Shown: positions 374 to 16,603 of the stretch, piece after piece
How the letters are laid out: the number at the start of each line of letters is the position of its first letter
How positions within the stretch are numbered: position 1 is the first letter of the stretch
Source: a virus
Length of the DNA: 16,603 bases
Strand: one strand, 5' to 3'
UHGV virus genome: UHGV-0121259
The notes under the pieces: generated by a model
The model's input: the letters and a program-made list of their open reading frames with translations, nothing else
Told to the model about the DNA's origin: nothing
The model's database searches: none
Translations under genes and position numbers: made by a program

Positions 374-640
374 CTAACGGTTGAACGTATGCTGTATCGC
401 TGCAAGCCGTGCAATATCTTTCCTTGTCTCTGCATCCCACGGTTCGTTATAAAACCACTTTGACGGGTGAGGGAGTTCAGATAAGGTGTTACTGAACAGT
501 ACCGATACTTCACCATCATCACTGTAGGTATCGAAGATTAACCGTCTACACTCCTTTGCAAACTCTTCACCACCGAGATACAGAAGTTGCCCCTGTTTCT
601 CTGTAACATACAAATCAAAATCTCTGTGTGACATCTTCAT
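374..640 (-). CDS. hypothetical small protein (88 aa)
   Basis: ATG-initiated ORF with non-repetitive, protein-like composition; its start overlaps the stop of a degraded upstream ORF (TAATG). No family recognised by eye. Confidence 0.4.
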   Translation of the reverse strand: MKMSHRDFDLYVTEKQGQLLYLGGEEFAKECRRLIFDTYSDDGEVSVLFSNTLSELPHPSKWFYNEPWDAETRKDIARLAAIQHTFNR

Positions 641-938
641 TATTGGTCAACAACCTTACAGTCATGCAGCATTACACGGTCAGGTGTAATCAGAGTTATT
701 TCATCACTTCTACGATAGCTTAACGTAACGCCACTATCCCCAGCTTTCGGCGCAAAGAACATCTCCAAACGTTTCACAGTGGCGCTCTCTTCAACGGTGT
801 AGTCATAGATTGCATACCGCTCCTGCTTGTCCGTGTATTTTGTACTTCTGACTAGCCATCCAAAACAATAGCGTGTTCACCCTGAGTTAACGACATACGC
901 ACTACAGTCTGACCATCACAGATTACGTCATAGTTCAT
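641..938 (-). pseudogene. frameshifted small gene remnant upstream of the 88-aa ORF
   Basis: Minus-strand translation gives MNYDVICDGQTVVRMSLTQGEHAIVLDG then stop; an adjacent frame continues WLVRSTKYTDKQERYAIYDYTVEESATVKRLEMFFAPKAGDSGVTLSYRRSDEITLITPDRVMLHDCKVVDQ and ends in a stop overlapping the next gene's ATG. Consistent with a single frameshift splitting a roughly 100-codon gene. Hand translation, so moderate to low confidence. Confidence 0.3.
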
Positions 939-989
939 TGCATATGCTGACAAGCTAAAGAGTGTGAGTGGAAACTAAGATGATATGCC

Positions 990-1406
990 TCATTTTATAA
1001 GCAACGCACAGTTATTCTGATTCCAGAGTGATGCAGCAGCTTCCTCATAGTTCGGTGACACGTTCTCTACATTCCTTGCCTTGTTGAAATCTTCAATCTT
1101 GTATTCGGAGTCCTGCACCTGGTAGTGGTAGACCTCTGCAAAATCTATAGCCATTTGCTCAGGGGTAGGATTGTACTCAGTAAATCCTCTCAGATTTGGA
1201 TAGTTCTTCTTAAACAACTGCACAGCTTTCTGTTCCATCGACTGAGCCTGGTCAGGAGTCACATCAGTTCTTAATCCCATATCCATTGTGTAGGCCATAC
1301 ACCGCATTACAGCATTCATCTCGTTCATATCTGCCTGAGAAACACCTTCAGCATTGACGCATGTAACCGTGAACAATCCCAGGATAAGTACCAGCACTTT
1401 CTTCAT
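990..1406 (-). CDS. exported protein with Sec-type signal peptide (138 aa)
   Basis: N-terminus MKKVLVLILGLFTVTCVNA-EG has a typical basic n-region, hydrophobic core and AxA-like cleavage site. Two Cys in the mature part could form a disulfide. No family assigned. Confidence 0.6.
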   Translation of the reverse strand: MKKVLVLILGLFTVTCVNAEGVSQADMNEMNAVMRCMAYTMDMGLRTDVTPDQAQSMEQKAVQLFKKNYPNLRGFTEYNPTPEQMAIDFAEVYHYQVQDSEYKIEDFNKARNVENVSPNYEEAAASLWNQNNCALLIK

Positions 1407-1551
1407 TATCTACCCACCTACAAAAAAACCGCCATAGTTGAAGGGGTAGATTATTACATTATTAGTAAGCGCACAGCGAGAGCCGTATTGACGGGGATGA
1501 GTCATTCAGTTGGCGGGGTTACGCTTCAGGGTAACAGTTCGCTGACCTGAT

Positions 1552-1565
1552 TGACTGGCCAGTCA
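1552..1565. promoter_or_regulatory. 14-bp perfect palindrome TGACTGGCCAGTCA
   Basis: Perfect dyad seen directly in the sequence, in AT-rich non-coding DNA upstream of the exported-protein gene; candidate dimeric regulator binding site. Confidence 0.3.
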
Positions 1566-2066
1566 GCTAGGGGTCAGTTTGGATATCGAAAATTATCGTA
1601 CGTAAAGGTTGATTTTTGTACTACTAGGCTGCGATAAGGGAGATAGACCACGTTGATAGGATGCTTTGAGCGAAGTGCAGACATTTTACTCATGGCAGTG
1701 GAGCGTTCCCGATTAATTAGACAGCACTTTCCAGTAACAAATTTAATTTGTATTTTTCGATCCCGGACAAGCAATACTTGTTGCAATTGATGATCGATGA
1801 ATTCTTTTTTGAGTGCCTGCAACGATTAACATCATTGGTAATCACGGAAAGTAAGATGTCTTAATACTTGCATATCTTTAACAGAAAATTCATGTAGTTG
1901 ATGACTATGATGGTCATCGCCTTTAATGAAATATCTACGTCCCAAAATCCCGTTCTAACCGCGAGTAAAATATCCGGCGTGGGGCATCAGGGAACAACGG
2001 CTGAAATTATCCCGCATTACGCTGGCGCCAGCTTAGCCCTGGCCACCAGCTTGAAGGGAGTTTCCG

Positions 2067-3008
2067 CTATTGATTTCTGAAGAACGCGGTCCTTGAAAGG
2101 GTCATTTGCGTCTGGCAGTCGACCATTTTCTTGACTTCAGCATCTGTTCCCTGCATTGAAACTTTACCGCACATAGCGTCCTTAGTTTTGATCCACTGGC
2201 GCTGAGAAGGCAGCAACTCTTTTTTCTTCTCTGGTGTTAATGTGCTCCAAGCGGTATTCAAATCAGAGTCAGCATTCGCAAAAGCCATTCGGGACTGATC
2301 AAGGTTGTCAGCTTTTTGTTGCTGAGGCTGCTGGTAGGATTGTTGTTGAATGGTTTGCTGAACCTGCTGCTCCGCCTCATATTTAGCCTGTTGCTGCGCC
2401 CTGAGTTGTGCCTGTTGTTCCGCTTCAATTTGACTTTGCTGGGCATCCTTAGCCTGCTGGATTTTCTGCTGCTCAACGATCGGGTTGATGATGGAAAGCG
2501 ATGTCAGTGCAGCGGCACCCACTGATATTGGGTTATCAGAAGAAGCTTTCACAAAAACGTTTTTCTGATCGTCGGTTGCCTGTGCGGTGTAGGAGATGCG
2601 TTTTGAAAAGGCGTTTGCGTTGTTATCCAAAGACAGGCTTTCCATTTGCTTGTCGAGATTACGGTTAAAGTTCTTTCTGTAAGCATCAGAAAGCTGTGCG
2701 TACTCGTTCGCAGGTAGGGTCATCGTCACGGTCCCTTCACAAGTTTTCATTGTGCTGCCCGTGTCACTTGAAGTTGTGGAGATTTCAGAGATGGTCAGTT
2801 TAATCTTGTCCAAAGCGCTTCGTTTGGTCTGATTAGTGACGTCAGGGTATTTGTCGACCTGTTCAGAGAGACCTTCATAAGCAGATTTTTTTATTAAATC
2901 CATGAGAGCTGACTGGGTCATTTCAGAGGAACAACCGATCACGTCTTTTTTGTTATCACAGCCTGTAATGGCAACGGCGAGTAAGAGTGCTGAGTATTTT
3001 AATCTCAT
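2067..3008 (-). CDS. lipoprotein with Gln-rich coiled-coil segment and C-terminal DUF1311 (LprI-like) domain
   Basis: Lipobox LLAVAITGC at the N-terminus; central Q/A/E-rich heptad-like stretch; C-terminus (ADSDLNTAWSTL...QRQWIKTKDAMCGK...VDCQTQMTLSRTAFF) fits the DUF1311 pattern of a conserved W, two Cys and an Arg. Confidence 0.7.
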   Translation of the reverse strand: MRLKYSALLLAVAITGCDNKKDVIGCSSEMTQSALMDLIKKSAYEGLSEQVDKYPDVTNQTKRSALDKIKLTISEISTTSSDTGSTMKTCEGTVTMTLPANEYAQLSDAYRKNFNRNLDKQMESLSLDNNANAFSKRISYTAQATDDQKNVFVKASSDNPISVGAAALTSLSIINPIVEQQKIQQAKDAQQSQIEAEQQAQLRAQQQAKYEAEQQVQQTIQQQSYQQPQQQKADNLDQSRMAFANADSDLNTAWSTLTPEKKKELLPSQRQWIKTKDAMCGKVSMQGTDAEVKKMVDCQTQMTLSRTAFFRNQ

Positions 3009-3459
3009 GAGTTCCCTTTAGAGTAAGGATTGGCTTTTAAGAGGCGGTCTGTAATCAGTCTGGAGGGCTATAGCAAACAGCGCTGAACACTGAACGCATC
3101 ACAAGCAAGAACCAAGGTGGTATCGGCAAAGACTGTGGAATCTTTAATTCAACTGATGAGAACGGTATGCACAAGGTTCAGTATCGATTATCCCGATGCA
3201 GGAAACCTGCAAGGCAGGTTTTGCTGCTGAACTTAAAAAAAGCTAGGTAAAGTCGGTACTGGCGTACCATTTATGACCTTTCACCTCCGCGGTGCACGAA
3301 AAAAATTCCGCAGAAATTCGTTCTTGGCTCATGTGTTCTGCTCCCTTCAAATTAATGCAGACCAAACTTAGCAACTTCCGCTCCTGGCACGAAGCCGACT
3401 ATACGCCTGAAGTATCATAGCTTAATTGGTTCTCTACACTCGCCACTGGGAGCGACTAC

Positions 3460-4104
3460 CTACGTTCTCTTCCCCCGTCCCATCTTCAGTACCTCATAAA
3501 AGGTCCCTCGCCCAAGCCCGTCTGACAACAATTCTCGCTCCTGAGCCAGCGTTTTCAGCTTTCGAAGTATCCGATCCGAAGCCGGCTTATCAGACGTCCC
3601 GTAACGCCCGTCAGTCTCCTCAACCAGAAGCTGAACCAGTAGCCAGCAGAGTCGGGCTGTATTCTCCCGCGCTTTGTCACGCTTATGCATCCCACGCTGG
3701 GAAGGTTGTGCTGAAGCAGTGAGATCCGGTAGCGCATCGTCGCCGAGTGTCTTCAGCCACTTGCGGCCACGGCTGTTGCGTGACAGTTTCATCACCGCCT
3801 TAAGGCTGCGGGCCTTAATTTCTGGCGGCGTGAGTTCGTCATCAATAAGCCGCCAGGCCAGGGCAAACATTTCATCGGCATAGAACATGCGTTTATTCGC
3901 CGGGGCGCTGATCATGCCCGTTGCTTTGATGGTGCGGCTGATGGCGTCGTGCAGGATACGGTAATTTTCCTGATGTTCTTCCGGCAGGGCGTTTGCAGGT
4001 TGGGAAGCATCGAGGCCGAGAAGCAGAAGGGCGAGATGCCGCGCTTCCAGCAGCGGCATATCACATTCCCGTTCAAACAGATTCTGACTAATGGGGCTGG
4101 TCAC
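3460..4104 (-). CDS. hypothetical protein (about 214 aa) coupled to integrase
   Basis: GTG start at 4104 lies 6 nt after a strong AAAGGAG Shine-Dalgarno embedded in the integrase 3' end; the integrase stop is at 4106-4108. No family recognised. Confidence 0.55.
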   Translation of the reverse strand: MTSPISQNLFERECDMPLLEARHLALLLLGLDASQPANALPEEHQENYRILHDAISRTIKATGMISAPANKRMFYADEMFALAWRLIDDELTPPEIKARSLKAVMKLSRNSRGRKWLKTLGDDALPDLTASAQPSQRGMHKRDKARENTARLCWLLVQLLVEETDGRYGTSDKPASDRILRKLKTLAQERELLSDGLGRGTFYEVLKMGRGKRT

Positions 4105-4105
4105 A

Positions 4106-5353
4106 TTATTCTCCTTTCACGATCTGCAGCGGTTCTTCTGCACCGAGCAGCGCCTGTCGTCTGGCAGCATCAACGTAGTTTCCCCACCACTGCATCAGCG
4201 GTCGCCTTTGTTCCAGGTAATCGCTGCGGTTATAGGCCGCTTCGATCTCGTCTTCTTTCTGGTGTGCCAGCGCAGATTCCAGAACTTCACGGGGGAAATG
4301 ACCTGCGCCTGCGGTCCTGGCGATGCTGCGCATGCCGTGGGCGACCAGTTCACCGCCAAACCCCATACGGATAAGCGCGGCGTTCGCGGTCTGTTGGTGC
4401 ATATGCTCCAGTGGTTTGCGAATGCTGGGGAAAACCCACGGACGATGGCGGCTGACTGGCTCCATGATCTGAAGAACGCGCAGTGCCTGTTTGCTGAGCG
4501 GCACCGTATGCGAACGGTTCATCTTCATAAAGGTGTCAGGGATACGCCATTCTGCTTTTTTCATATCGATGTCACACCAGCGGGCGCTAACGGCTTCGCC
4601 GGGGCGAACCCAGGTCAGTAGCTCCCATTCGATAAGGCAGCGGGTTTCCTTGCGGATAGAGGCGTTCTGTAGTGCCAGCATCAGCCTACCCAACTCGCTG
4701 GGGTGGAGTGCGGGCATGTTCTGCTTTTTCGGTTTCTTGAAGCGGGCGACCAGGTTGTCAGCCGGATTGAACTCGATGAGCTCTTCGGAGATGGCAAAGC
4801 GGAAGATTTCATTGAGCCGCGAGATAACCCGCCGCAGCGTTTCGAGGATGCCCTGTTCTTCCAGCGGTGTGAGGTGTTCCTTGAGTATTTTCGGGCGGAT
4901 CTCGGTGACGGGCGTATGGCCCAGAGAAGGAAAGACGTGCATCTCCAGCGAACGCCAGATATCTTTGACGTGATCTTCGCTGAGTCCACAGGTCCGTTTT
5001 TTCTCTTCCAGCCACTGTCCGGCTACCTTTTCCAGCGTGCATTCATTCTGGATGCGTTTTTCTTCGGCCATTTCAGCTAAGTGTTGACGAGGATCGATGC
5101 CCTGCCAGAGCAGTCGTCTGTACTGTGTGCGAGTTTCGCGGGCCATCGCCAGTGTAACGACCGGGTAAGGGCCAAGGCTGGTTTTGGTGCGCTTTTTGGT
5201 GACGGGATGATAATACTCGAAATGCCAGGCCTTCCTCCCTGAAGTCTTAACCAGCAAGTACAGGCCTTCACCGTCCCGTAGCTCATAATCTGTGCTACGG
5301 GGCTTCGCGCCAGCGATCTCCACATTTGTTAAGGGTTTCAGTTGCTTAGGCAT
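4106..5353 (-). CDS. int: P4-family tyrosine integrase (site-specific recombinase)
   Basis: 415 aa; N-terminal arm-binding region (KPLTNVEIAGAKP...DGEGLYLLV) and C-terminal catalytic region with conserved His/Arg/Tyr context (HGMRSIARTAG...ALAHQ...AYNRSDYLEQRR), resembling CP4-57 IntA-type integrases. Lies immediately downstream of the ssrA 3'-end att copy on the same strand. Confidence 0.9.
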   Translation of the reverse strand: MPKQLKPLTNVEIAGAKPRSTDYELRDGEGLYLLVKTSGRKAWHFEYYHPVTKKRTKTSLGPYPVVTLAMARETRTQYRRLLWQGIDPRQHLAEMAEEKRIQNECTLEKVAGQWLEEKKRTCGLSEDHVKDIWRSLEMHVFPSLGHTPVTEIRPKILKEHLTPLEEQGILETLRRVISRLNEIFRFAISEELIEFNPADNLVARFKKPKKQNMPALHPSELGRLMLALQNASIRKETRCLIEWELLTWVRPGEAVSARWCDIDMKKAEWRIPDTFMKMNRSHTVPLSKQALRVLQIMEPVSRHRPWVFPSIRKPLEHMHQQTANAALIRMGFGGELVAHGMRSIARTAGAGHFPREVLESALAHQKEDEIEAAYNRSDYLEQRRPLMQWWGNYVDAARRQALLGAEEPLQIVKGE

Positions 5354-5357
5354 GTTT

Positions 5358-5397
5358 TAGCACCACACTTTTTTAGCCCCACGATACCGTGGTGCTA
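5358..5397. promoter_or_regulatory. dyad symmetry in the integrase leader (TAGCACCAC / GTGGTGCTA, with inner palindrome CCACGATACCGTGG)
   Basis: 9-bp inverted repeat spaced about 22 nt, directly upstream of the int start codon at 5353 and covering its weak ribosome-binding region; possible operator or translational control hairpin. Confidence 0.3.
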
Positions 5398-5451
5398 AAC
5401 ATGGTGCCAAAAGGTCAAAATTCATACAGAGATCATGACCACACATGCAAC

Positions 5452-5489
5452 AAAAAAGCCTGCAACTCGTTGAAGTTACAGGCTTTTTT
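5452..5489. terminator. candidate bidirectional rho-independent terminator
   Basis: AAAAAAGCCTG-(16-nt loop with inner CAAC/GTTG pairing)-CAGGCTTTTTT; an A-run and a T-run flank the stem, so it can terminate on either strand. Sits between the ssrA fragment and int. Confidence 0.45.
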
Positions 5490-5519
5490 AAGGTTCATGA
5501 TGCATCATGAATGAATGTT

Positions 5520-5564
5520 TGGTGGAGCTGGCGGGAGTTGAACCCGCGTCCGAAATTCCTACAT
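5520..5564 (-). repeat. ssrA: 45-bp fragment of the ssrA (tmRNA) 3' end; attachment-site core shared by the two elements
   Basis: Minus strand reads ATGTAGGAATTTCGGACGCGGGTTCAACTCCCGCCAGCTCCACCA, matching the tmRNA 3' acceptor/T-arm and CCA tail as I recall the E. coli sequence. DNA 5' of it (5565 onward) is AT-rich and unrelated to tmRNA, so this is a partial copy, not a gene. Confidence 0.85.
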
Positions 5565-5649
5565 ACCATTTTTACCATAATGAAAACAGTTGTTTGTATT
5601 TAAAAACAGTATGTTAGTGTTGTTTTGTGTTAGTCCGTTTTATCCGTTT

Positions 5650-6717
5650 TTAACTCTCTGCCGCCACTTTGTCGCCATTAAAGGTAAGCAGAGGATCCGT
5701 TTTACCACTATAAGTGGAGATAACTTGAAAGATTGGTACATCATACTTTGCTATCAAATCTGCTATCATGAAAATCTTGCCAGAAGATGCATCGTCTTTG
5801 TATGAAAAAAAATCATCTGTAATATCAAGAATGTCTATCGTAAATTTAAAGTAAGTCGCTATGGTATTTCCAAGCTCACTACTAGACATGAAGTTTGTGA
5901 AAATTTGATATCCTTCTGTAGATAAGGAGGCATGTTCATTTAAACTGACAGTGGTCAAACACAACATCCGGTTTAATTTTAATAGTTTAAATTCTATTGA
6001 ATGTAGTGCTTGCATTTGACGCACTAGAACGTCATTGATATCTAACCCTTTATTCGATGAAGCAAAGCTTTCCATGGATTTAAGAATTTCGAGCCAATAT
6101 TTATTGATTTTTTTTATATATTCTTTATTTGCTTTTGCTGGCCTACCTTTTTCTGGGTTGCTTTCGTCAAATATATATCTATATAAATGTATAGGGTATG
6201 AAACCTTGCATGTAATCTCATGTATTTCAAGGTGGCGTTTGCGATGAATTATTTGGCCAGGTAAATTAGTAAAGTAATCAGTGACAAATTTCAAATGGCT
6301 ATAATGACTATCTGAAAGATTTTTTTGTTTAGCCTCCTGAATCTGTCGATTTGTTTGAACTGTCCGATGAATGTTAGCTACTACGGCAACAAATGGTATG
6401 GATAAAGAAAGTAACGCGATGGGAAGTTTGCTAATAGCAATGAAATTATTAAATCCATCACTGTTAAATTGCGGACTATGTCCAAGCCAGGAAAATAAAC
6501 CAAAATAAAATGATGATAGTAATGGTATCCTTATTGATTGTTTGAATAAGTATTGTTTTGTTAACGGTCTTTCATCCATTTCAAAAGCTTTTTTATTTAT
6601 ACAGAGTGTTAACTCAATAAACACATATAACACATACAAAGATATTAGTGCATATGACAGCCATGAATGTTGTTGAATAAAATCGTTAATAAACACTTTT
6701 TGAGTTTCTCCATCCAA
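5650..6717 (-). CDS. AT-rich membrane-anchored protein of unknown function (about 355 aa), cargo gene between att core and prophage integrase
   Basis: Long ORF in a markedly AT-rich segment (by eye) unlike flanking phage DNA. Three hydrophobic helices in the first ~120 residues, then a ~235-aa K/N/I/Y-rich soluble domain. The start codon is uncertain (TTG at 6717 or GTG at 6696); both overlap the integrase 3' end. Confidence 0.6.
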   Translation of the reverse strand: MDGETQKVFINDFIQQHSWLSYALISLYVLYVFIELTLCINKKAFEMDERPLTKQYLFKQSIRIPLLSSFYFGLFSWLGHSPQFNSDGFNNFIAISKLPIALLSLSIPFVAVVANIHRTVQTNRQIQEAKQKNLSDSHYSHLKFVTDYFTNLPGQIIHRKRHLEIHEITCKVSYPIHLYRYIFDESNPEKGRPAKANKEYIKKINKYWLEILKSMESFASSNKGLDINDVLVRQMQALHSIEFKLLKLNRMLCLTTVSLNEHASLSTEGYQIFTNFMSSSELGNTIATYFKFTIDILDITDDFFSYKDDASSGKIFMIADLIAKYDVPIFQVISTYSGKTDPLLTFNGDKVAAES

Positions 6718-7726
6718 GATTAGCTAGTGGATTCTTTGTTACTGCATCTTCTAAATGGTCGGGGGCAAAGTGGGCGTAAACCATCGTCATTTTTATATCG
6801 GCATGACCCAAAATATCTCGCAGTACCAATATATTTCCGCCGTTCATCATAAAGTGGCTGGCGAATGTATGGCGCAGCACGTGGGTGCATTGCCCCTCCG
6901 GCAGATCAATACTGGCCCGCTTTACTGCCCGCTCAAAGGCTTTTCTGCATGGCGTGAATAACTTCCCTCTGTTTTTGGGGAGTTCTTCATACAGATCCTG
7001 AGAAATAGGCACGGTACGGTTTTTCTTGCCCTTGGTCTTGGTATAGGTGATCCGGTATTTCGATAACTGATGGCCCTGCAGGTTTTCGGCTTCACTCCAG
7101 CGCGCGCCGGTGGCCAGGCATATTTTTGCAATCATCAGCAGGCTGGGGCTTTGAGATTCCGCGCAGGCATCCAGTAGGCGTTTAATTTCTTCCGGAGCCA
7201 AGAACGCCAGCTCACCTTCTGCGATTTTAAATGTTGGTAGCCCGGCGAGAGGGTTTGGTGCTGACCAGTGGCCTAGCTTTTTCAGGGTGCCAAAAACCGA
7301 TGATAGGTTACGTTGTTCGAGGTTTACCGTTCGGGGCTTAACTGGTGACATAAACGCGCCATCTTCATTTCGCATTTCACCTTTTAGCCGCGCTTCCCGA
7401 TATTTTGTGAAATCGGCTGCCGTTAACTCTGAAGCAACCGGATCGCCCAGACCATTACAAATAATGTTGAGTTTCGCCATTAGACGTTTCGGATCCGCAA
7501 GCGTCTGACCGTAGAGTGAGTGCCATTGCTCAATTACTTCTGACAAGCGCCGCCGATCTTCCTTCTCACCAAGCCATGGCTTTTTGTTCACTTCATCCAT
7601 GGTGAAGTTTTCGAATGCTACGGCCTCACCTTTCGTCGCAAATTGCTTGCGCACGCGTTTGCCGTCGCGTCCGTTTGGGTAGCATTCACACAACCATTTT
7701 CCGTTCGGCTGCTTTCTGATGGTCAT
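6686..7726 (-). CDS. int: P2/186-family tyrosine integrase
   Basis: 346 aa; N-terminal arm-binding type fold (KQPNGKWLCECYPNGRDGKRVRKQFATKGEA) and C-terminal catalytic box HVLRHTFASHFMMNGGNILVLRDILGHADIKMTMVYAHF. ATG at 7724-7726, three nucleotides downstream of the repressor stop, as in the P2 C-int operon. Confidence 0.9.
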   Translation of the reverse strand: MTIRKQPNGKWLCECYPNGRDGKRVRKQFATKGEAVAFENFTMDEVNKKPWLGEKEDRRRLSEVIEQWHSLYGQTLADPKRLMAKLNIICNGLGDPVASELTAADFTKYREARLKGEMRNEDGAFMSPVKPRTVNLEQRNLSSVFGTLKKLGHWSAPNPLAGLPTFKIAEGELAFLAPEEIKRLLDACAESQSPSLLMIAKICLATGARWSEAENLQGHQLSKYRITYTKTKGKKNRTVPISQDLYEELPKNRGKLFTPCRKAFERAVKRASIDLPEGQCTHVLRHTFASHFMMNGGNILVLRDILGHADIKMTMVYAHFAPDHLEDAVTKNPLANLGWRNSKSVY

Positions 7727-7729
7727 AAG

Positions 7730-8362
7730 TTAGAGGCTCTTGATTACTTTTATAGCACGGCCTACAACCTCGATATCATCAAGGCTGCACTCAAAAGATG
7801 ACTCACCCTGCTGGACAATTAAGCGATTGCCGGGGATGCGTGCAAGTTTAGCTATCGTTTTTATTCCATCAATATCAACGAGCCATACGCCATTTACTGG
7901 TGGAGTACCGCTACGGTCAACGAGGTAAGAGCCATCGTCTGTATGGATGAGCCACGGATTAGTCATGTTGTGGGGGATTAGACTTTTATCCAATATCACC
8001 TTGCCTTGGTCCACTAAAGCGCCACCATCTAATGTGGCCTTATCAATTTCAGGCGCTACAACCTCGGATAACGGTTTGATGTGGGGCTGGTTCACAAAAC
8101 CAAAACTATTTTCCTGCGCATTATTATCATTTTTATCACCTTGCCCAGTCGTTAACCAAAGCAGCGAAACCCCAGTTTCAAGAGCGCACTGTATAACCCA
8201 TTCTGCAGGGAAGCTATCTCTTAAGTATCTGTTTGCCATAGTGCTTTTTGAAACGGAAAGATGGTCACACAACTGCTGTCGAGAGTTGAAGTTATAAGCC
8301 TTAATCAGCCTATTGATAGCTTCACGCCCTCCGCTCTCATTACCTACCTTGATAGATCTCAT
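7730..8362 (-). CDS. phage CI-type immunity repressor (186-like size class)
   Basis: About 210 aa directly upstream of and co-oriented with int, divergent from the early operon; N-terminal region has an HTH-like segment (QQLCDHLSVSKSTMANRYL). No GDSM-type S24 peptidase motif seen, so probably not autocleavable. First ATG at 8360-8362. Confidence 0.65.
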   Translation of the reverse strand: MRSIKVGNESGGREAINRLIKAYNFNSRQQLCDHLSVSKSTMANRYLRDSFPAEWVIQCALETGVSLLWLTTGQGDKNDNNAQENSFGFVNQPHIKPLSEVVAPEIDKATLDGGALVDQGKVILDKSLIPHNMTNPWLIHTDDGSYLVDRSGTPPVNGVWLVDIDGIKTIAKLARIPGNRLIVQQGESSFECSLDDIEVVGRAIKVIKSL

Positions 8363-8374
8363 AAGCAAAACCCT

Positions 8375-10077: not shown

Positions 10078-10304
10078 TGGCTGATTCAATGGACCTTGTA
10101 CAGCAGCGCGTTGAAGAAGAACGTCAGCGCCACATCCACACCGCCCGCAACAGAACGCCGGGCGTTTCCCGTGTGCTTTGCATTGATTGTGATGCACCGA
10201 TCCCGCCAGAACGTCGCCGCGCTATTCCGGGCGTGCAGTGTTGCGTCACCTGTCAGGAAATTGCGGAGCTGAAAGGCAAACATTACGTAGGGGGTGCTGT
10301 ATGA
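10077..10304 (+). CDS. TraR/DksA-family C4 zinc-finger protein
   Basis: 75 aa with CIDCDAPIPPERRRAIPGVQCCVTCQ, the four-Cys zinc-finger spacing of phage TraR-like proteins; stop overlaps the dam start (ATGA). Confidence 0.7.
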   Translation: MADSMDLVQQRVEEERQRHIHTARNRTPGVSRVLCIDCDAPIPPERRRAIPGVQCCVTCQEIAELKGKHYVGGAV

Positions 10305-11158
10305 GCACTATCCTGAAATGGGCGGGTAATAAAACCTCCATCATGGCAGAACTGAAAAAACACCTTCCAGCAGGCCCGCGACTGGTTGAACCTTTCGCGG
10401 GTTCATGCGCTGTGATGATGGAGACAGACTATCCTCATTATCTTGTCGCGGATATTAATCCAGACCTGATTAATCTCTATCAGGTGATTAAAAATGATGT
10501 TGAATACTTCATCAAAGAGGGCAGATATCTTTTTGAAGCCCGTAATGATCCAGAGGCATATCATAAGACGAGACAGGAGTTTAACTTGCGCCATGGTGGT
10601 GCAATTGAACGCGCATTGTATTTCTTATATTTAAATCGCCATGGTTATCGCGGACTGTGTCGCTATAACTTGGACGGTTATTTTAATGTTCCTTACGGAA
10701 ATTATAAAAAGCCGTACTTCCCTGAAAACGAAATATGCGCATTTGCAGAAAAAGCAAAACGCGCAACGTTTATCTGCGCCAGCTATGACGAGACACTGGC
10801 ACTGCTGCAAACGGGTGATGTTGTCTATTGCGATCCACCATATGACGGCACGTTTAACGGATATCACACAGCTGGTTTTACAGAGGATGATCAGTACCAT
10901 CTGGCGTCTATTCTTGAGCGCCGGTCATTAGACGGTCATACGGTTATCGTGTCCAACAGCGATACGTCTCTGACCCGTTCGCTTTATCGTGATTTTACCC
11001 GCCATCGTATAACCGCTAAGCGCAGCATGGGCGTGGCTGCCGGTGATAGTAAAACTGCAGTAGAAATCATCGCCACAAAATCAGCATGCTGGTTTGGTGT
11101 TGATTTGGCGTCTGGTCCTGATATCTCGGTGGAAGCTGAGGTGCGGGCGTGGCAGTGA
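10301..11158 (+). CDS. dam: DNA adenine methyltransferase (Dam-like, N6-adenine)
   Basis: 285 aa; SAM-binding motif [11 protein letters not shown] and catalytic DPPY (VYCDPPYDG); GGGGTG ribosome-binding site; 3' end overlaps the replication gene start by 10 nt. Confidence 0.85.
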
Positions 11159-13557
11159 GTAAATTCACATTACATCATGCACAAACCACCGGCGGCTCGA
11201 ATGAGGCCGCGGTGGCTTTTCCATGGAATGCCCCAAAAAAAGCGGTTAACCCGTATCTGGACCCGGCGGAAGTAGCGCCGGAGTCTGCGCTTTCAAACCT
11301 CATCACTCTGTACGCAGCGGATAACGAGCAGGGGCATCTGCGCCGTGAGGCGCTGAGTGATAAGGTTTGGGAACGTTATTTCTTCAATGAATCCCGTGAT
11401 CCTGTCCAGCGTGAAATAGAGCAGGATCAGCTAATTAGCCATGCCAAAATGGCCCGCGAACAGCAGCGCGTTAATCCCGATTTGGTGATTATTGCCGATG
11501 TAAGCGCTATGCCTGCTCATATCAGCAAGCCTCTGCTGGAGCGGATTAAATACTTCCATAGCCTAGGTAGGGCTAAAGCTTATTCCCGCTATCTGCGCGA
11601 AACAATCAGGCCTTGTCTTGAGCGGCTGGAGCGCGTGCGTGACAGCCAGGTGTCTGCGTCTTTCCTGTTCATGGCGAGCCAAGACGGGCTGGAGGGGCTA
11701 CTGGTACTGCCTGAAATGAGTCAGGATCAGGTCAAACGTTTGTCCACGCTGGTTGCGGCACATATGAGCATGTGCCTTGATGCTGCCAGCGGTGATCTGT
11801 TTGTTGCTGAAGATGTTAAGCCAGAAGAAATCCGCCAGGTATGGGAAAGGGTTGCTGCAGAAGCCATGCGCCTTGAGGTCATCCCGCCTGCCTTTGAGAA
11901 GTTGCGCCGCAAAAAGCGCCGCCGCAAGCCGGTGCCTTATGAACTGATCCCACCGTCGCTGGCGCGCATGCTGTGCGCGGACTGGTGGTATCGCAAATTG
12001 TGGCAGATGCGCTGTGAGTGGCGGGAGGAGCAACTGCGTGCCGTCTGCCTAGTCAACAAGAAAGCGTCCCCGTATGTCAGCTATGAAGCCGTGATCCACA
12101 AACGCGAGCAGCGCCGTAAATCGCTGGAGTTCTTCCGCTCGCATGAGCTGGTCAACGAAGACGGCGACACGCTGGACATGGAAGACGTGGTGAACGCCAG
12201 CAACAGCAACCCGGCACACCGCCGTAATGAAATGATGGCCTGTGTTAAGGGACTGGAGCTGATCGCGGAAATGCGCGGAGACTGCGCGGTGTTTTATACC
12301 ATCACCTGCCCGTCACGCTTCCACGCAACCCTCAACAACGGCAGACCTAATCCGAAGTGGACCAGTGCCACTGTCCGGCAGAGCAGTGACTACCTGGTTG
12401 ATACGTTCGCCGCTTTCCGCAAGGCCATGCACAAGGCCGGGCTGCGCTGGTATGGCGTTCGCGTTGCAGAGCCGCACCATGACGGCACCGTGCACTGGCA
12501 TCTTCTGTGCTTCATGCGCAAAAAAGACCGCCGTTCCATCACCGCACTGCTGCGTAAGTTTGCCATCCGTGAAGACCGCGAGGAGCTGGGCACCAATACC
12601 GGGCCGCGCTTCAAGTCCGAGCTAATCAATCCGCGCAAGGGAACGCCGACCAGCTATATCGCCAAATACATCAGTAAGAACATCGACGGGCGTGGGCTGG
12701 CTAAAGAAATCAGCAAAGAAACCGGAAGATCACTGCGTGACAGCGCCGAGCATGTCAGCGCCTGGGCGTCACTGCACCGTGTTCAGCAATTTCGTTTCTT
12801 TGGTATTCCTGGGCGTCAGGCATACCGCGAGCTGCGCTTGCTTGCTGGTCAGGCGGCGAGAGTGCAGGGCGAACGCAAAGCGGGTGCGCCGGTACTGGAT
12901 AACCCGCGTCTGGATGCGGTACTGGCAGCTGCAGATGCGGGTTGCTTTGCCACTTATATCATGAAGCAGGGCGGTGTACTGGTTCCCCGCAAACATCACC
13001 TTGTCCGCACGGCTTATGAGCTTAACGACGAACCGAGCGCCTACGGCGATCACGGTATCCGTATCTATGGCATCTGGTCCCCGATTGTTGAGGGCAAGAT
13101 TTGCACGCACGCGATGAAGTGGAAAAAGATTCGTAAGGCCGTTGACGTTCAGGAGGCGGCAGCCGACCAGGGCGCTTGCGCCCCTTGGACTCGTGGCAAT
13201 AACTGTCCCCCTGTTGAAAATCTGAACAAATCAGGGGGTGATTTACCTGATATTAAAACCATGGGTGAGAAGGAGCTGCAGGAATATCTCCACAACATGG
13301 GCCAGAAGGAACGGCGGGAGCTGACAGCCAGGTTAAGACTGGTAAAACCTAAGCGGAAAAAAGCCTATAAACAGAATATTTCGGAGCAGCAGCGTCTGCA
13401 GCTTGAGGCAGAACTGACAGCCAGAGGATTTGAAGGTAGTGCATCGGAGATTGATTTGCTCCTGCGTGGCGGCAGCATTCCATCAGGTGCCGGGCTGCGT
13501 ATTTTTTACCGTAACCAGCGGCTGCAGGAAGATGACAAATGGCGTCAGTGGTACTAA
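11149..13557 (+). CDS. replication initiation endonuclease (P2 gpA-type rolling-circle initiator)
   Basis: 802 aa with GTG start; contains the twin-tyrosine motif SYIAKYISK typical of phiX174/P2 A-type nickases; position and size match gene A of P2/186. Confidence 0.85.
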
Positions 13558-13626
13558 GACTGCCGTTTAACAATTAGTGCTTTATTGACTGGTGTCAGTG
13601 TATCCAATTAACTGACAAAAAAGAGT

Positions 13627-13669
13627 TTTACATTTTCAAATCCCTAATATACTGTACACATAAACAGTG
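13627..13669 (+). promoter_or_regulatory. LexA (SOS) box overlapping a sigma70-type promoter
   Basis: TACTGTACACATAAACAGTG at 13650-13669 fits CTGT-N8-ACAG of the LexA consensus; TTTACA (13627-13632) sits 17 nt upstream of TACTGT, so the box overlaps the -10. Confidence 0.55.
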
Positions 13670-13715
13670 GGTATATATACAGTTGTTGTGTATCCGTGTA
13701 ATGATAGGAGGGAAG

Positions 13716-13904
13716 ATGCAGGACTATCTTTTGGAGTCATTAAAGCTCCAGCGTATTGATTTTTTTATCAAGCTTGTAGCGGCTAGTGAGTGCAGCGATG
13801 AAGAAAAGCGGCTGGCTATCCAGTGGGTGTCCGAACTGACCGACGAGCTGATGGCGAAAATCCGCAGCCATGAATACTGCCGGTCAATGGACGTAACCAG
13901 TTAA
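13716..13904 (+). CDS. small SOS-operon protein (62 aa), candidate Tum-like antirepressor
   Basis: ATG at 13716 is 4 nt after a perfect GGAGGG ribosome-binding site; first gene downstream of the LexA box and immediately upstream of dinI-like, mirroring the 186 tum-orf97 operon layout. Function inferred from context only. Confidence 0.4.
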   Translation: MQDYLLESLKLQRIDFFIKLVAASECSDEEKRLAIQWVSELTDELMAKIRSHEYCRSMDVTS

Positions 13905-13915
13905 AGGGAATCTGT

Positions 13916-14149
13916 ATGCGCATTGAAATAATGATCGATAAAGAGCAGAAGATTAGCCAGTCTACACTGGACGCCCTTGAATCCGAGCTTTACCGTAATT
14001 TGCGCCCTCTGTATCCCAAAACAGCAATTCGTATCCGCAAGGGCAGCGCCAATGGCGTTGAACTGAGCGGGTTAAAACTGGATGAAGACAAACAGCGAGT
14101 GATGGAAATAATGCAGCAGGTCTGGGAGGACGACAGTTGGTTACATTAG
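13916..14149 (+). CDS. dinI: DinI-family protein
   Basis: 77 aa; MRIEIMIDK...DALESEL...DEDKQRVMEIMQQVWEDDSW aligns by eye with E. coli DinI (MRIEVTIAK...DALAGEL...KEDKQRISEILQETWESADDW). Confidence 0.85.
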   Translation: MRIEIMIDKEQKISQSTLDALESELYRNLRPLYPKTAIRIRKGSANGVELSGLKLDEDKQRVMEIMQQVWEDDSWLH

Positions 14150-14282
14150 CGAACGTTGCGGACGATAAAACTGGTTTTTACCGTCCGCAAGGTTGAACAA
14201 CGAGCCACGCGAGGCGTTAGTGCTGTTGTGCATGTCTATGCCGCATGAAATCGCATGATCGTTTGAGGATCGTTTTTGCTGA

Positions 14283-14308
14283 GGCCCGCCAGAACTGGCG
14301 GGCTTTTG
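14283..14308 (+). terminator. rho-independent terminator of the SOS operon
   Basis: GGCCCGCCAG-AA-CTGGCGGGC followed by TTTTGCTT. Confidence 0.6.
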
Positions 14309-14353
14309 CTTATGTCATGCAGGTGCATGAAAACCGCTACACAAAGCGGGCAG

Positions 14354-14372
14354 GCGTGGCGGGGATACGAGC
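14354..14372. other. candidate cos (cohesive end) site of the prophage
   Basis: GGCGTGGCGGGGATACGAG; the first 13 nt match my recollection of the 186 cohesive end (GGCGTGGCGGGGAAAGCAT). It lies in a 450-bp non-coding GC-rich stretch between the late-early region and the portal gene, where cos sits in P2/186. Recollection-based, unverified. Confidence 0.3.
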
Positions 14373-14598
14373 GCGCGCCGCGGGGTGAAATAGTAAAATT
14401 CACTTAGCCTCAGGCCCGCTGATGGCTTCCTTCTGAAAGGGAGGGGGCGTTTTTGTGCAATCTTGTTTGAAGGGATTTAAATAAATGTTGAATGTGTTCC
14501 GGAGTTGGCTGTAGATTTAGTGTTCTGTCACAAGTTGCAGTGATAGGTAGCAAACCTTTAAAAGGTTCTGCTATTGTTTCATTAAAGATTTATAGTCT

Positions 14599-15198
14599 TT
14601 GTCCGAAAATGACATTAAAGTAGTCGCCTTTAATGTCGTAAGCATGAAGGACAGAGAATTGAACTTAGAGCAGATTGCCAGTCAAAGTATAAGTAACCTT
14701 CAGTTTCTTCTCGATACTTTGAAGATGCCGTTGGCTGTTGGTCCAATCAGTGATGAAGACTATGTGATCCTGACCACAGGATACGCTCAGCTAGAATGGG
14801 ATTATGGTTTTTCTCGGTTTGGCAATCGAAGTGATAAGTTTGAATTTTGTTTGAAGCTCCTTGCGGGGCCACTTAGGCATATCCCTTCTGGCGCAGCTAT
14901 GTGCACCTTTGATGAGGACGCTGGAGTCATAGAGATCCATTTTGTGGAATCTTTTGTGAAAGATGATGACGTAGAGCATCCTCTTTACGGCAACATGTTC
15001 ATGGTTACATTGTGGGCGGTATATCTTTTTGGTAGCGCGGTTGGGTGTCAAGAGATTCGCATCCCTGAAGCCCTGAATCAAAAAGTTGCTGATCACTATA
15101 AAAAATTTGGTTTTAAAGGTGATATAAGCTTGCTTTCGGCACCTTTTGCTACAATAACTGATGTAGTAAGACGCTACATTACTTCTAAGAAACAGTAG
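14599..15198 (+). CDS. hypothetical protein (184-199 aa), cargo gene; possible divergent GNAT-like fold
   Basis: ORF in a lower-GC segment (by eye) between cos-like site and portal gene. Start uncertain (TTG 14599 or ATG 14644, neither with a strong ribosome-binding site). C-terminal EALNQKVADHYKKFGF resembles acetyltransferase motif B (e.g. AtaT EALNEKAHTFYKSLGF), but the CoA-binding Q/R-x-x-G-x-G/A motif is not evident. Confidence 0.55.
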   Translation: MSENDIKVVAFNVVSMKDRELNLEQIASQSISNLQFLLDTLKMPLAVGPISDEDYVILTTGYAQLEWDYGFSRFGNRSDKFEFCLKLLAGPLRHIPSGAAMCTFDEDAGVIEIHFVESFVKDDDVEHPLYGNMFMVTLWAVYLFGSAVGCQEIRIPEALNQKVADHYKKFGFKGDISLLSAPFATITDVVRRYITSKKQ

Positions 15199-15277
15199 AT
15201 AAATTTTTGCGCAGTGCTACAATGCTGCGCCAAACATCCACCACCGGATGATGAGGCTTGACCTCTAAGAGGAAATC

Positions 15278-15457
15278 ATGACTATGACGCATAGTGACAA
15301 GAAAGCTCAGAAGCATTACTCAGTATCTGATGTTTTCAGCCGTATGGGCGTCGCGATGGAAGAACTACTTCAAGCGGCCCCACATATGATGCAGGACTGC
15401 AAATTTGAAGGAAATGAGCTTCATGGTAAGCTCAAAGAAAAGCAGAAAGCTGCTTAA
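15278..15457 (+). CDS. hypothetical small protein (59 aa)
   Basis: ATG at 15278 preceded by AGAGGA; below the 60-aa cutoff of the supplied ORF track; followed by a strong terminator. Sequence MTMTHSDKKAQKHYSVSDVFSRMGVAMEELLQAAPHMMQDCKFEGNELHGKLKEKQKAA. Confidence 0.4.
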   Translation: MTMTHSDKKAQKHYSVSDVFSRMGVAMEELLQAAPHMMQDCKFEGNELHGKLKEKQKAA

Positions 15458-15481
15458 TTCCATGAAATGCGTTTTGCATGA

Positions 15482-15505
15482 AGCCCGGTAATACCGGGCT
15501 TTTTT
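15482..15505 (+). terminator. rho-independent terminator after the cargo pair
   Basis: AGCCCGG-TAATA-CCGGGCT followed by TTTTT; just before the convergent portal gene stop at 15513. Confidence 0.6.
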
Positions 15506-15512
15506 ATGCCAG

Positions 15513-16553
15513 CTAGTCAGTATTAAGCTCATATGGATTGAATCGGACTACCTCTTCACCAAGCCATTCATTTAGCTCCAGTAATCGCTTTTGTAACGGT
15601 ACTATTTCGTTTCTTGTGAAGACGCGACTGGCCTTTTCCACATCCCCAAAACCGCCGGTATTGTTGGGAATGATACCCATCATTTGCGGCGGCACGCGGT
15701 GCGCTGCCATCATGTCATCACGGCTCACATTCTTGATGTTGAGAAATTCATCTTTCGCCGCTACCTCTGACAGCGGAATGATTTGAATCCCGTCTTTTTT
15801 GCCGTTGGGCGAGTACATGAATAGATTGCGGAAGTTGCCAGGGCCCTTGGCGCTTTTCATGGCCTGGCGGATATTGTTCACGTCCTCCTGGTTTTGCGCG
15901 GCGTCGGTCATATACATGATAAAGCCCGCATGGCTACCGTTAATGTAATACTTCCGGCGGAACAGCGTGGCGGACTCGTTGAGCAGGGCTGATGGAATGG
16001 CTGAGAGGTAACCGGGCAGCCCGTAAATCTCCTGGTTAATATCCGGCTCCATCAGGTGAAAAATGTTGCCCTGTGTAAATTCATAGGGCTGCGTGGTCAG
16101 GCCATACTGCACAAACCAGTAGGTGTCGAGGTCCACGCCACGGCGTGTGTACTTCGCCAGTGCTGGCTCCAGTGTGAGAACGCCGCCGAGCCGGTTGGTG
16201 CGCTTTTCCAGATAGGCGTTACCGAACACCAGATAATCCTGGACGAAACGGGCAAAAGCCTGCTGGCTGAGCAGGCGGTGCGGGATGTACGTACTGCTGA
16301 GAATGTCACGTTTAACCGCTATCGGTGAGCTGTGATGCACAGCGGCGCGGTAGGTTCGCGCCAGCCCGTCAAAGCTTACTGGCGGCTCATACCATCTGTC
16401 CATCTGTACGCATTCCACATAGTCCAGCAGCTCGCGGCGGTCCAGCACCGGGATCGGATCGCCAAAGCTGAAAGCCTCGGCAGCTACGCCTGCGTTTTTA
16501 GGCGCCGTAGCTTCTGTTGGCGTTGAGCTGGTTAAGGCTTCGGGTTCACTCAT
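15513..16553 (-). CDS. portal protein (P2 gpQ-like)
   Basis: About 346 aa on the opposite strand at the position and size of P2 gene Q; start ATG overlaps the stop of the upstream gene (TGATG). Assignment by synteny and size; the sequence was not aligned. Confidence 0.7.
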   Translation of the reverse strand: MSEPEALTSSTPTEATAPKNAGVAAEAFSFGDPIPVLDRRELLDYVECVQMDRWYEPPVSFDGLARTYRAAVHHSSPIAVKRDILSSTYIPHRLLSQQAFARFVQDYLVFGNAYLEKRTNRLGGVLTLEPALAKYTRRGVDLDTYWFVQYGLTTQPYEFTQGNIFHLMEPDINQEIYGLPGYLSAIPSALLNESATLFRRKYYINGSHAGFIMYMTDAAQNQEDVNNIRQAMKSAKGPGNFRNLFMYSPNGKKDGIQIIPLSEVAAKDEFLNIKNVSRDDMMAAHRVPPQMMGIIPNNTGGFGDVEKASRVFTRNEIVPLQKRLLELNEWLGEEVVRFNPYELNTD

Positions 16554-16603
16554 CAAAAAATCTCCACAATATTGCTGGTATTGGCGGACTCGCCCTGCAG
16601 CGG
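16553..16603 (-). CDS. 3' end of upstream late gene (position of terminase ATPase gpP), partial at window edge
   Basis: Open frame to the window edge ending ...NIVEIF-stop, with the stop overlapping the portal ATG. Too short to identify by sequence. Confidence 0.3.
   Translation of the reverse strand, partial: PLQGESANTSNIVEIF

Follow-up and report, generated by a model that had tools for sequence, protein, structure and literature searches.

The viral genome UHGV-0121259 was analyzed as a window of 16,603 nucleotides, which contains a P2/186-like prophage with the same gene order as its annotated Escherichia coli relatives. Between the cos-like site and the portal gene of this prophage lies a two-gene cassette (14400-15510), encoding a larger protein that is predicted with high confidence to adopt a GNAT fold and a small partner of 59 residues. 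We tentatively propose that the pair forms a reverse-order toxin-antidote-like exclusion or addiction module. The two open reading frames (ORFs) reported in the initial annotation, of about 190 and 59 residues, both exist, the larger one measuring 179 or 184 residues depending on the start codon. Both are under purifying selection when compared with nine homologous loci, with dN/dS of about 0.08-0.30 (0.17-0.30 for the small gene) and pN far below a saturated pS (0.45-0.95).

The statement that neither protein belongs to a nameable family held under systematic searches. The larger protein matches phrog_4350 (E 3e-77) and the small one phrog_2741, both PHROG families of unknown function; neither has a match in Pfam, in NCBIfam or, when the locus was screened for defense models, in PADLOC-DB v2.0.0 (E<=1 for Pfam with the larger protein and for PADLOC-DB with both). 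No Pfam GNAT model was detected on any of 29 homologues of the larger protein, even at E<=10. A word-indexed search retrieved these 29 clusters, and a full hidden Markov model (HMM) search recovered 75 representatives among 1.84 billion proteins; one homologue (P0028) carries the UniRef name ‘N-acetyltransferase do...’. At the profile level, a search of the PDB gave 0 matches with the 29-sequence alignment and only sub-significant matches over motif B with a 66-sequence alignment, no chain falling below E 0.1.

The fold was revealed by structure prediction. The AlphaFold2 (AF2) model built with the 29 homologues (pLDDT 88.5, pTM 0.86) displays the GNAT topology β1-α1-α2-β2-4-α3-β5-α4-β6-7, with extra helices at the N- and C-termini. 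Foldseek retrieved 214 PDB chains at E<=0.001 with a probability of 1.00, of which the top 50 listed are all GNAT enzymes or GNAT-fold proteins, and a search of a viral structure library likewise returned GNATs only. The best match is AtaT bound to its antitoxin, and KacT and TacT3 also rank high (6gtq, 5zgn, 7ak9, 6ajm); PA3270, PaiA, RimJ, NatD and SpeG reach similar scores (TM 0.5-0.6), the toxins having TM scores of 0.50-0.57 and E-values no better than those of PA3270, SpeG and RimJ.

The initial annotation had suspected a GNAT from the motif ...NQKVADHYKKFGF, and at the level of the fold this hunch was right, as indicated by the Foldseek matches and by the alignment of the motif-B tyrosine. 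Motif B lies in α4 (N145-QKVADH-Y152-KKF-G156-F157) and aligns with Naa50 (E 0.12-0.26), with RimI at Y115 and with SpeG at Y135; each of these alignments is weak, and all of them agree. Column identity averages 20% over the 66 aligned members; W52 never varies among them, Y152 and F157 reach a conservation of 90% or more, and both E102 in β4 and the motif-B asparagine are conserved. The CoA-binding loop had been described as unclear, and the canonical motif A is indeed not conserved: the β4-α3 loop reads ...VKDDDVE-H112-P-L-Y-G116-N-M118 in place of Q/R-x-x-G-x-G/A, keeping only the central glycine, with proline for Q/R and an invariant methionine for G/A. From the model and these residues, it is plausible that the larger protein is a catalytically active acyltransferase. 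The family is acidic (median pI 4.9, window protein 5.0), a pI above 7 being reached by 11 of 66 members; such an overall acidity is compatible with a local basic patch. Two natural variants (P0039 and P0040) carry a frameshift that destroys motif B.

A profile search with the small protein gathered 96 clusters, all from Enterobacterales. AF2 predicts a single helix (residues 16-39, pLDDT about 77-87; mean pLDDT 66.5) flanked by basic, disordered N- and C-terminal tails, with about four basic residues among the last 12, and neither AF2 nor Pfam revealed a ribbon-helix-helix (RHH) or helix-turn-helix (HTH) DNA-binding domain. The protein ends in -AA in 75 of the 96 cluster representatives and in -KAA in 61, as does the window protein; most of the exceptions to -AA are evident frameshift, read-through or truncation variants, and the most divergent member, unannotated in phage Eeyore, ends in -EAA. 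ClpX recognizes a C-terminal Ala-Ala of the ssrA type (C-motif 1), and the -KAA tail is a candidate ssrA-like ClpXP degron. Several independent E. coli variants (P0169, P0184, P0191, P0197 and P0200) share a frameshifted C-terminus, ...KQHDHSWCFLKTRL[Q], that lacks -KAA. Recurrent inactivating or stabilizing lesions in the GNAT or its partner would be expected of a toxin-antidote pair.

The small gene is equipped with expression signals of its own. A promoter scan identified an internal sigma-70 promoter with a TG motif (Table 1), and the TAG of its -35 element doubles as the stop codon of the GNAT gene. The TAnAAT and T[AG]GA[CT]A elements are kept in all eight aligned intergenic regions, distant subfamilies included; across loci the arrangement is T[AG]GA[CT]A, 16-17 nt and TG-n-TA[GCA]AAT, with equivalents visible in L019, L022, L025 and L017. 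In 10 of 10 loci, the small gene starts with ATG after AGAGGA or GGAG. GNAT genes mostly start with TTG or GTG and, a truncated call aside, the two ATG calls both belong to the subfamily typified by the cultured lambdoid phage mEp460. Since the small gene combines its own promoter, a strong Shine-Dalgarno sequence and an ATG, against a TTG/GTG start for the enzyme, the partner should be made in excess over the enzyme. Two further candidates for regulatory elements were discarded: an RNA switch in the leader of the small gene (GAGG...CCTC...GAGG-SD, with SD for Shine-Dalgarno), for which RNAalifold gave no consensus pairs, and an operator-like repeat over the internal -10 (GCGCAG-N10-CTGCGC), which is not conserved in Edwardsiella or in the E. 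coli locus L011. In the mEp460-type subfamily the region between the two genes is longer, at 178-196 nt (L017 5532-5727, L019 3808-4000, L025 3823-4000), and contains a conserved inverted repeat, CACCAATCG-N5-7-CGATTGG, which is not followed by a T-run and is absent from P2-type cassettes; it is possibly an operator or an RNA element.

The larger gene probably begins at TTG 14659, as this codon and a Shine-Dalgarno sequence 8-10 nt upstream are conserved in P2-type loci and the PHROG profile starts there too. The alternatives are an ATG at 14644, which gives the 184-residue product of RefSeq relatives, and the longest ORF (14599-15198, 199 residues). Upstream of the start, the block TCCGAAAATGACATTAAAGTA is kept in the E. 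coli, Pectobacterium, Pantoea, Edwardsiella and Lonsdalea loci. It harbors a mini-ORF of four codons (MTLK*, ATG ACA TTA AAG TAG; 14609-14623), whose ATG shares the reading frame of the GNAT gene in P0012, P0014 and P0023, giving products of 190-195 residues, and is out of frame here. The N-terminal extensions called in some GNAT homologues lie in different frames and, because the frame differs between lineages, the block appears to be conserved as DNA or RNA and not as protein. The candidate promoter of the GNAT gene matches 8 of 12 consensus positions, under the threshold of the scan; its TAGATT element is shared with the Pantoea locus L014, the upstream regions being otherwise unconserved between lineages.

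The two genes travel together. The GNAT gene is followed by the small gene in 14 of 14 loci examined, including the unannotated copy in Eeyore, and the three loci reached by starting from the small protein all have the GNAT gene as well. The divergence of the two proteins co-varies pairwise (Mantel r 0.889, a value that 0 of 5,000 permutations reached); the GNAT and its partner are inherited as one unit. The pair is not confined to the P2 slot, a point that the initial annotation had missed, and was found at seven or more kinds of temperate-phage position: the cos-to-portal slot of P2-like prophages (in Escherichia, Pectobacterium, Pantoea, Edwardsiella and Lonsdalea); directly downstream of an S24 CI repressor and co-oriented with it, in Serratia symbiotica; between the Q antiterminator and the lysis genes; inside a siphovirus tail cluster; between int and xis in mEp460 (gp23/gp24); at the edge of a Salmonella prophage, next to xis; and between fis and the integrase of a satellite-like element with a primase-polymerase, in Klebsiella. 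The larger proteins of the mEp460, Salmonella and Klebsiella sets match the family HMM with E-values of 1e-50 to 1e-81. All loci carrying the pair are phages, prophages or satellite-like elements.

In the window, the position between cos and the portal gene was borne out at both ends. The cos-like sequence GGCGTGGCGGGGATACGAG shares 14 of its 19 nt, the first 13 included, with the cohesive end annotated at positions 1-19 of phage 186; it is also kept in L011 and L016, and the non-coding block around it is 88-96% conserved across 90 records of P2-like phages. The ORF at the other end, labeled portal protein in relatives, is convergent with the cassette genes. The interval between these two landmarks is 177 bp in phage 186, where it contains only a terminator, and 1,141 bp in the window, where it holds the cassette. 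The match to the closest left-flank backbones (H32-H35) ends at about 14380-14400 and similarity at the portal side starts at about 15556, so the limits first assigned to the cassette, 14400 and 15510, coincide with recombination boundaries. The lower GC content noticed at the outset was confirmed by measurement (42.5% for 14400-15510 vs 55.7% for the gpA gene and 53.9% for the portal gene). The two bracketing terminators are also present and differ in strength: the downstream one is strong (-20.5 kcal/mol, z -3.4), and the upstream one is weaker (-16.1 kcal/mol, z -1.3), moderately exceptional at most, and would insulate the cassette from upstream transcription. An Rfam search gave no RNA family within the cassette. 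With its atypical GC content, its terminators, the promoter of the small gene and its presence or absence at several positions, the cassette is a phage moron, the promoter of the GNAT gene itself being a weak candidate.

The variability claimed for the slot was upheld by comparing it across related prophages. Of 5,426 complete E. coli genomes, 11 contain cassette DNA (14400-15509) with 99.1% identity, and none contains a more diverged version. A related portal gene is present in 1,255 of the 5,426, so that 11 in about 1,255 genomes with a related portal carry the cassette, which more than 99% of related E. coli prophages lack. In the 11 cassette-bearing genomes, the DinI/cos flank is at most 88% identical, against 99.1% for the cassette, which thus moved between diverged backbones. 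A megablast search of the cassette against 50,697 phage records gave no match, and tblastn alone recovered the distant phage copies, in mEp460 and Eeyore. The same sub-slot holds an 89-residue ORF in L009, the three genes Hp1-Hp2-Hp3 in L010, in the same orientation, and only a terminator in phage 186. A conserved structural or packaging role, with the pair always portal-proximal in P2-like phages, was rejected in view of this rarity; the pair is furthermore missing in phage 186 and lies at unrelated positions in lambdoid phages.

Two of the E. coli loci deserve a separate description. In L010 (E. coli FDAARGOS_1249, 525-4898), two cargo units surround cos: a minus-strand unit with a ComF/PRTase protein (weak ShosT/PsyrT PADLOC matches) and a hypothetical protein of 185 residues, and the plus-strand Hp1-Hp2-Hp3 unit in the cos-to-portal sub-slot. 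The hotspot hence appears to comprise two sub-slots, one on each side of cos. In L001 (E. coli 504239, 10114-13855), which carries the cassette at 99.1% identity, an IS66-family element, ISCro1, splits the portal gene, and neither the capsid gene nor D is full-length; the cassette thus persists in a defective prophage.

The P2 hotspot between gpA and gpQ holds old/tin and validated defense systems, and also non-defense cargo, namely partition systems and the cdt toxin (PMC9122126). The Hp1-Hp2-Hp3 genes of L010 match PADLOC PDLC03004-6, and this three-gene system was shown to protect against P1 (Rousset et al. 2022, PMC9122126). The pair studied here is listed as ‘hypothetical + hypothetical’ in Table S5A of the same work (WP_001485637 + WP_021523861), in which we found no sign that it was cloned or assayed. 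A literature search on the protein accessions, the PHROG identifiers and GNAT-based defense, including the DefensePredictor paper and a domain-centric screen, returned no functional report. The family is uncharacterized, being known as PHROG unknowns, as ‘hypothetical protein’ in RefSeq and as one unannotated row of a supplementary table.

Several known systems resemble the pair in part. AtaRT, KacAT, TacAT and ItaRT also combine a GNAT-fold protein of about 170-180 residues with an adjacent small partner gene in a compact arrangement on mobile DNA, and the catalytic tyrosine of these toxins (Y144, Y145) corresponds to Y152 here. However, the partner is here a single helix without DUF1778/RHH, DUF4065 or any DNA-binding fold, and the enzyme is acidic, has a degenerate CoA loop and shows no similarity to these toxins at the sequence level. 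The antitoxin gene of AtaRT, KacAT and TacAT lies upstream and is co-transcribed, whereas here the partner gene follows that of the GNAT and is served by a promoter of its own. The GNAT toxin family has been defined by association with a DUF1778 antitoxin (PMC9177977); given the lack of DUF1778 or DUF4065 in the partner, the reversed order and the lack of a sequence-level relationship, the pair falls outside the canonical GNAT/DUF1778 family.

The gene order resembles that of mqsRA, higBA and hicAB, which are reverse-order type II toxin-antitoxin modules with an extra antitoxin promoter. As in these modules, a toxin-like gene comes first, a promoter is internal, the translation signals of the partner are stronger and the terminus of the partner is degron-like. 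Their antitoxins, however, autoregulate via HTH or RHH domains, whereas the partner here consists of one helix and basic tails, and the folds of the effectors show no relationship. The cassette resembles lambda rexAB and other morons as a promoter-to-terminator unit of atypical GC content between phage operons, and the Serratia symbiotica pair occupies a rexAB-like position; it has no relation in sequence or fold to RexA or RexB, and its mechanism is presumably enzymatic. AcrVA5 and Brc113 are likewise GNAT-fold proteins of mobile elements involved in phage-host conflict, but they are encoded by single genes with no obligatory partner, no sequence similarity to the window protein was detected, and AcrVA5 is much smaller, at about 92 residues. 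Among the cargo of the P2 hotspot itself, old/tin, Rst_3HP (Hp1-3), DprA-PRTase and DUF4238 (PMC9122126) share with the cassette its slot, orientation, compact size and variable occupancy, while the cassette has no homology to validated or candidate systems of PADLOC and is also found outside this hotspot.

In the scheme that we favor, the 179-residue protein, a diverged GNAT-fold acyltransferase that is probably active, would be the effector, poorly translated from its conserved TTG/GTG start, and the 59-residue protein would be a dedicated restraining partner, made in excess and short-lived via its candidate -KAA degron. In the lysogen, the partner would neutralize the enzyme. Upon host shut-off by an infecting phage, or upon prophage loss, the partner would decay, and the freed GNAT would acylate an essential target, leading to abortive infection or to the death of the cured cell. 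Enzymatic activity, toxicity, neutralization, partner lability, target and anti-phage effect are thus all points that we infer and, as this extends to every functional step, our confidence in the scheme stays somewhat short of even. It is favored by the conjunction of a catalytic-looking, sparingly made enzyme, an obligatory, abundantly made partner whose tail is degron-like, a moron architecture, lysogen-type positions, including one downstream of cI in Serratia symbiotica as for rexAB in lambda, and a slot that holds defense systems. A precedent is the GNAT-domain integron cassette Brc113, which was selected in a phage-resistance screen (bioRxiv 10.1101/2024.07.02.601719).

Several observations weigh against this scheme. 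The ranking of toxins above housekeeping GNATs in the Foldseek search is marginal (E 4.6e-6 vs 5.3e-6). Neither DUF1778/RHH nor DUF4065 is present in the partner, AtaRT, KacAT and TacAT have the opposite gene order, and PADLOC matches neither of the two proteins. The pyrophosphate loop reads H-P-L-x-G-x-M, which is invariant in the close family and follows an acidic insertion; with this degenerate loop and no Pfam GNAT match in the 29 members, acyl-CoA binding is not assured. The TacT and AtaT toxins, which acetylate tRNA, use a basic tRNA-binding surface; the acidity of the family therefore casts doubt on aminoacyl-tRNA as the target, for which a basic protein is no less likely. Finally, new systems cloned from the hotspot mostly lacked a defense phenotype, three of eight having scored (PMC9122126). 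A more specific form of the scheme, to which we give real weight while judging it unlikely, is that of a new immunity or addiction family in which an acidic orphan GNAT, held by a ClpXP-labile helical peptide of 59 residues, acylates, in place of an aminoacyl-tRNA, a protein, conceivably a basic one from the host or the phage, e.g., a nucleoid, ribosomal or capsid component.

The acidity of the enzyme (pI about 5) bears equally on another relationship between the two proteins. The partner, with its Lys/Arg-rich termini and no recognizable domain, may be the substrate of the GNAT, acylated at its N-terminus or on its lysine-rich tails, or else its co-factor, the modified peptide or the complex then acting as a lysis-lysogeny regulator or as an effector with a target in the host or the phage. 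Strict pairing and co-divergence agree with such an arrangement, as does the presence of RimI, RimJ, Naa50 and NatD among the structural matches, many GNATs acetylating protein N-termini or lysines. The stronger, separate signals of the small gene and the weak start of the enzyme fit stoichiometric neutralization better, and the conserved -AA terminus suggests turnover and not a stable product; neither point is decisive, and we consider an enzyme-substrate pair unlikely. We regard as very unlikely that the protein is a pseudo-enzyme, i.e., a GNAT fold that does not bind acyl-CoA and serves with the small protein as a non-catalytic sensor, scaffold or decoy. The replacement of Q/R-x-x-G-x-G/A by the invariant HPLxGxM after an acidic insertion, and the failure of any GNAT sequence model to detect a single member, speak for it. 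Nevertheless, residues of the type used in catalysis, namely the tyrosine equivalent to RimI Y115 and SpeG Y135, the motif-B asparagine and E102, are kept at a mean column identity of 20%, and the GNAT pyrophosphate loop binds through backbone amides, so that a degenerate sequence is compatible with binding.

Other explanations concern the role of the pair more than its chemistry. GNATs encoded by mobile genetic elements can be anti-defense proteins, as are AcrVA5 and AcrVA5Bsp (PMC10799925), and the cassette adjoins cos, one end of virion DNA, in a family confined to phages, prophages and satellite-like elements; the GNAT might thus acetylate and inactivate a host immune protein, as AcrVA5 does with Cas12a, with the small protein as a regulator or chaperone. 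We find such a counter-defense function quite unlikely, as the partner lacks the HTH of the Aca regulators commonly found beside acr genes, as the placement after cI and the insulated promoter-to-terminator layout argue for expression in the lysogen and not early in infection, and as it is not evident why an anti-defense enzyme should depend on an obligatory labile partner, present in 14 of 14 loci. The least probable of the options considered is an enzyme of host fitness or lysogenic conversion, acetylating, e.g., an antibiotic, a polyamine or a toxic metabolite. The structural neighbors do include SpeG, PaiA and aminoglycoside and nourseothricin acetyltransferases, and the non-defense cargo of the hotspot (partition systems, cdt toxin; PMC9122126) is in keeping with it. 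Small-molecule GNATs, however, normally need no co-inherited 59-residue partner with its own promoter, the weak TTG/GTG starts argue against a need for abundant enzyme, and the family is limited to temperate elements of Enterobacterales and rare, both among proteins at large (75 representatives in 1.84 billion) and among E. coli genomes (11 of 5,426).

The features of the cassette and of the surrounding prophage are collected in Table 1.

Table 1. Coordinates of the cassette, its expression signals and the prophage backbone in the window
Feature	Position	Strand	Remarks
Integrase, P2-type	6686-7726	-	
CI repressor, 186-type	7730-8368	-	
Dam methylase	10238-11158		
gpA replication endonuclease	11149-13557		55.7% GC
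Small phrog_698 gene	13683-13904		
DinI-like gene	13916-14149		Pfam PF06183, E 3e-24
Intrinsic terminator of the early (gpA-DinI) operon	14281-14306	+	-23.6 kcal/mol, z -5.1, then UUUUGCUU; outside the cassette
cos-like cohesive end GGCGTGGCGGGGATACGAG	14353-14371	not assigned	left edge of the cos-to-portal slot
Two-gene cassette	14400-15510	+	42.5% GC; exchanged as a unit
Left-end terminator-like hairpin + T5	14425-14454 (hairpin 14425-14448)	+	10-bp stem, then GTTTTTG
Candidate sigma-70 promoter of the GNAT gene, low confidence	14488-14517	+	TTGAAT-18-TAGATT, read from sequence
Leader block TCCGAAAATGACATTAAAGTA 5' of the GNAT start	14602-14622	+	conserved while flanks vary
Gene of the GNAT-fold protein (predicted)	14659-15198	+	179 aa from conserved TTG; Shine-Dalgarno AAGGA 14647-14651
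Internal sigma-70 promoter of the small gene	15196-15223	+	-35 TAGATA, 16-nt spacer, extended -10 TG-n-TACAAT
Strong Shine-Dalgarno AAGAGGAA of the small gene	15267-15274	+	
Small partner gene	15278-15457	+	59 aa; phrog_2741, E 2e-30
Closing intrinsic terminator	15476-15509 (hairpin 15482-15500)	+	AGCCCGG-UAAUA-CCGGGCU, then U6; just before the portal gene
Portal gene (P2 Q / 186 W homologue)	15513-16556	-	53.9% GC; right boundary of the slot, outside the cassette

The phrog_698 and DinI-like genes end the early operon just 5' of cos and are found in most of the related prophages inspected; because they are shared in this way, they belong to the backbone and not to the variable cargo. At the other, int-proximal end of the prophage, a region just downstream of the P2-type integrase and before an ssrA fragment encodes a 355-residue ORF (5650-6717, minus strand) of 30-34% GC, which matches phrog_17460 (function unknown; E 1e-118) and has no Pfam or PADLOC match; this region looks like a second cargo slot. 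Beyond it, a P4/CP4-57-type integrase gene (4106-5353, minus strand) adjoins partial matches to tmRNA (ssrA) at 5520-5609 and 5342-5577 (minus strand). Both score under the Rfam gathering cut-off, and ARAGORN found no intact tmRNA; the stretch 4106-5609 is 93-94% identical to ssrA-adjacent islands of E. coli. The P4-type integrase together with the partial ssrA matches suggests tandem integrative elements at an ssrA attachment site. To the left of this integrase, the minus strand encodes a 313-residue protein (2067-3008) with a C-terminal LprI (lysozyme inhibitor) domain (phrog_5094, E 2e-171).

About one fifth of P2-like phages carry only unannotated genes at this hotspot (PMC13586616). At the sister P4 hotspot, six of eight such loci that were assayed proved to be new defense systems. 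The cassette described here is well defined and clonable, with 1.1 kb, clear boundaries, a catalytic-type residue (Y152) and an obligatory partner with a candidate degron, and a natural homologous pair exists in a cultured phage, as gp23/gp24 of mEp460. It also illustrates that a GNAT clade, revealed by structure prediction only, still escapes curated HMM libraries. If the pair is indeed a toxin-antidote or exclusion module, the few effector chemistries of phage defense would be joined by the acylation of protein or RNA through a non-canonical GNAT, and GNAT toxins would no longer be tied to antitoxins of the DUF1778 and DUF4065 families. Should the target be a protein, this would be a new abortive-infection chemistry, spread as a moron among the temperate phages and satellites of Enterobacterales.

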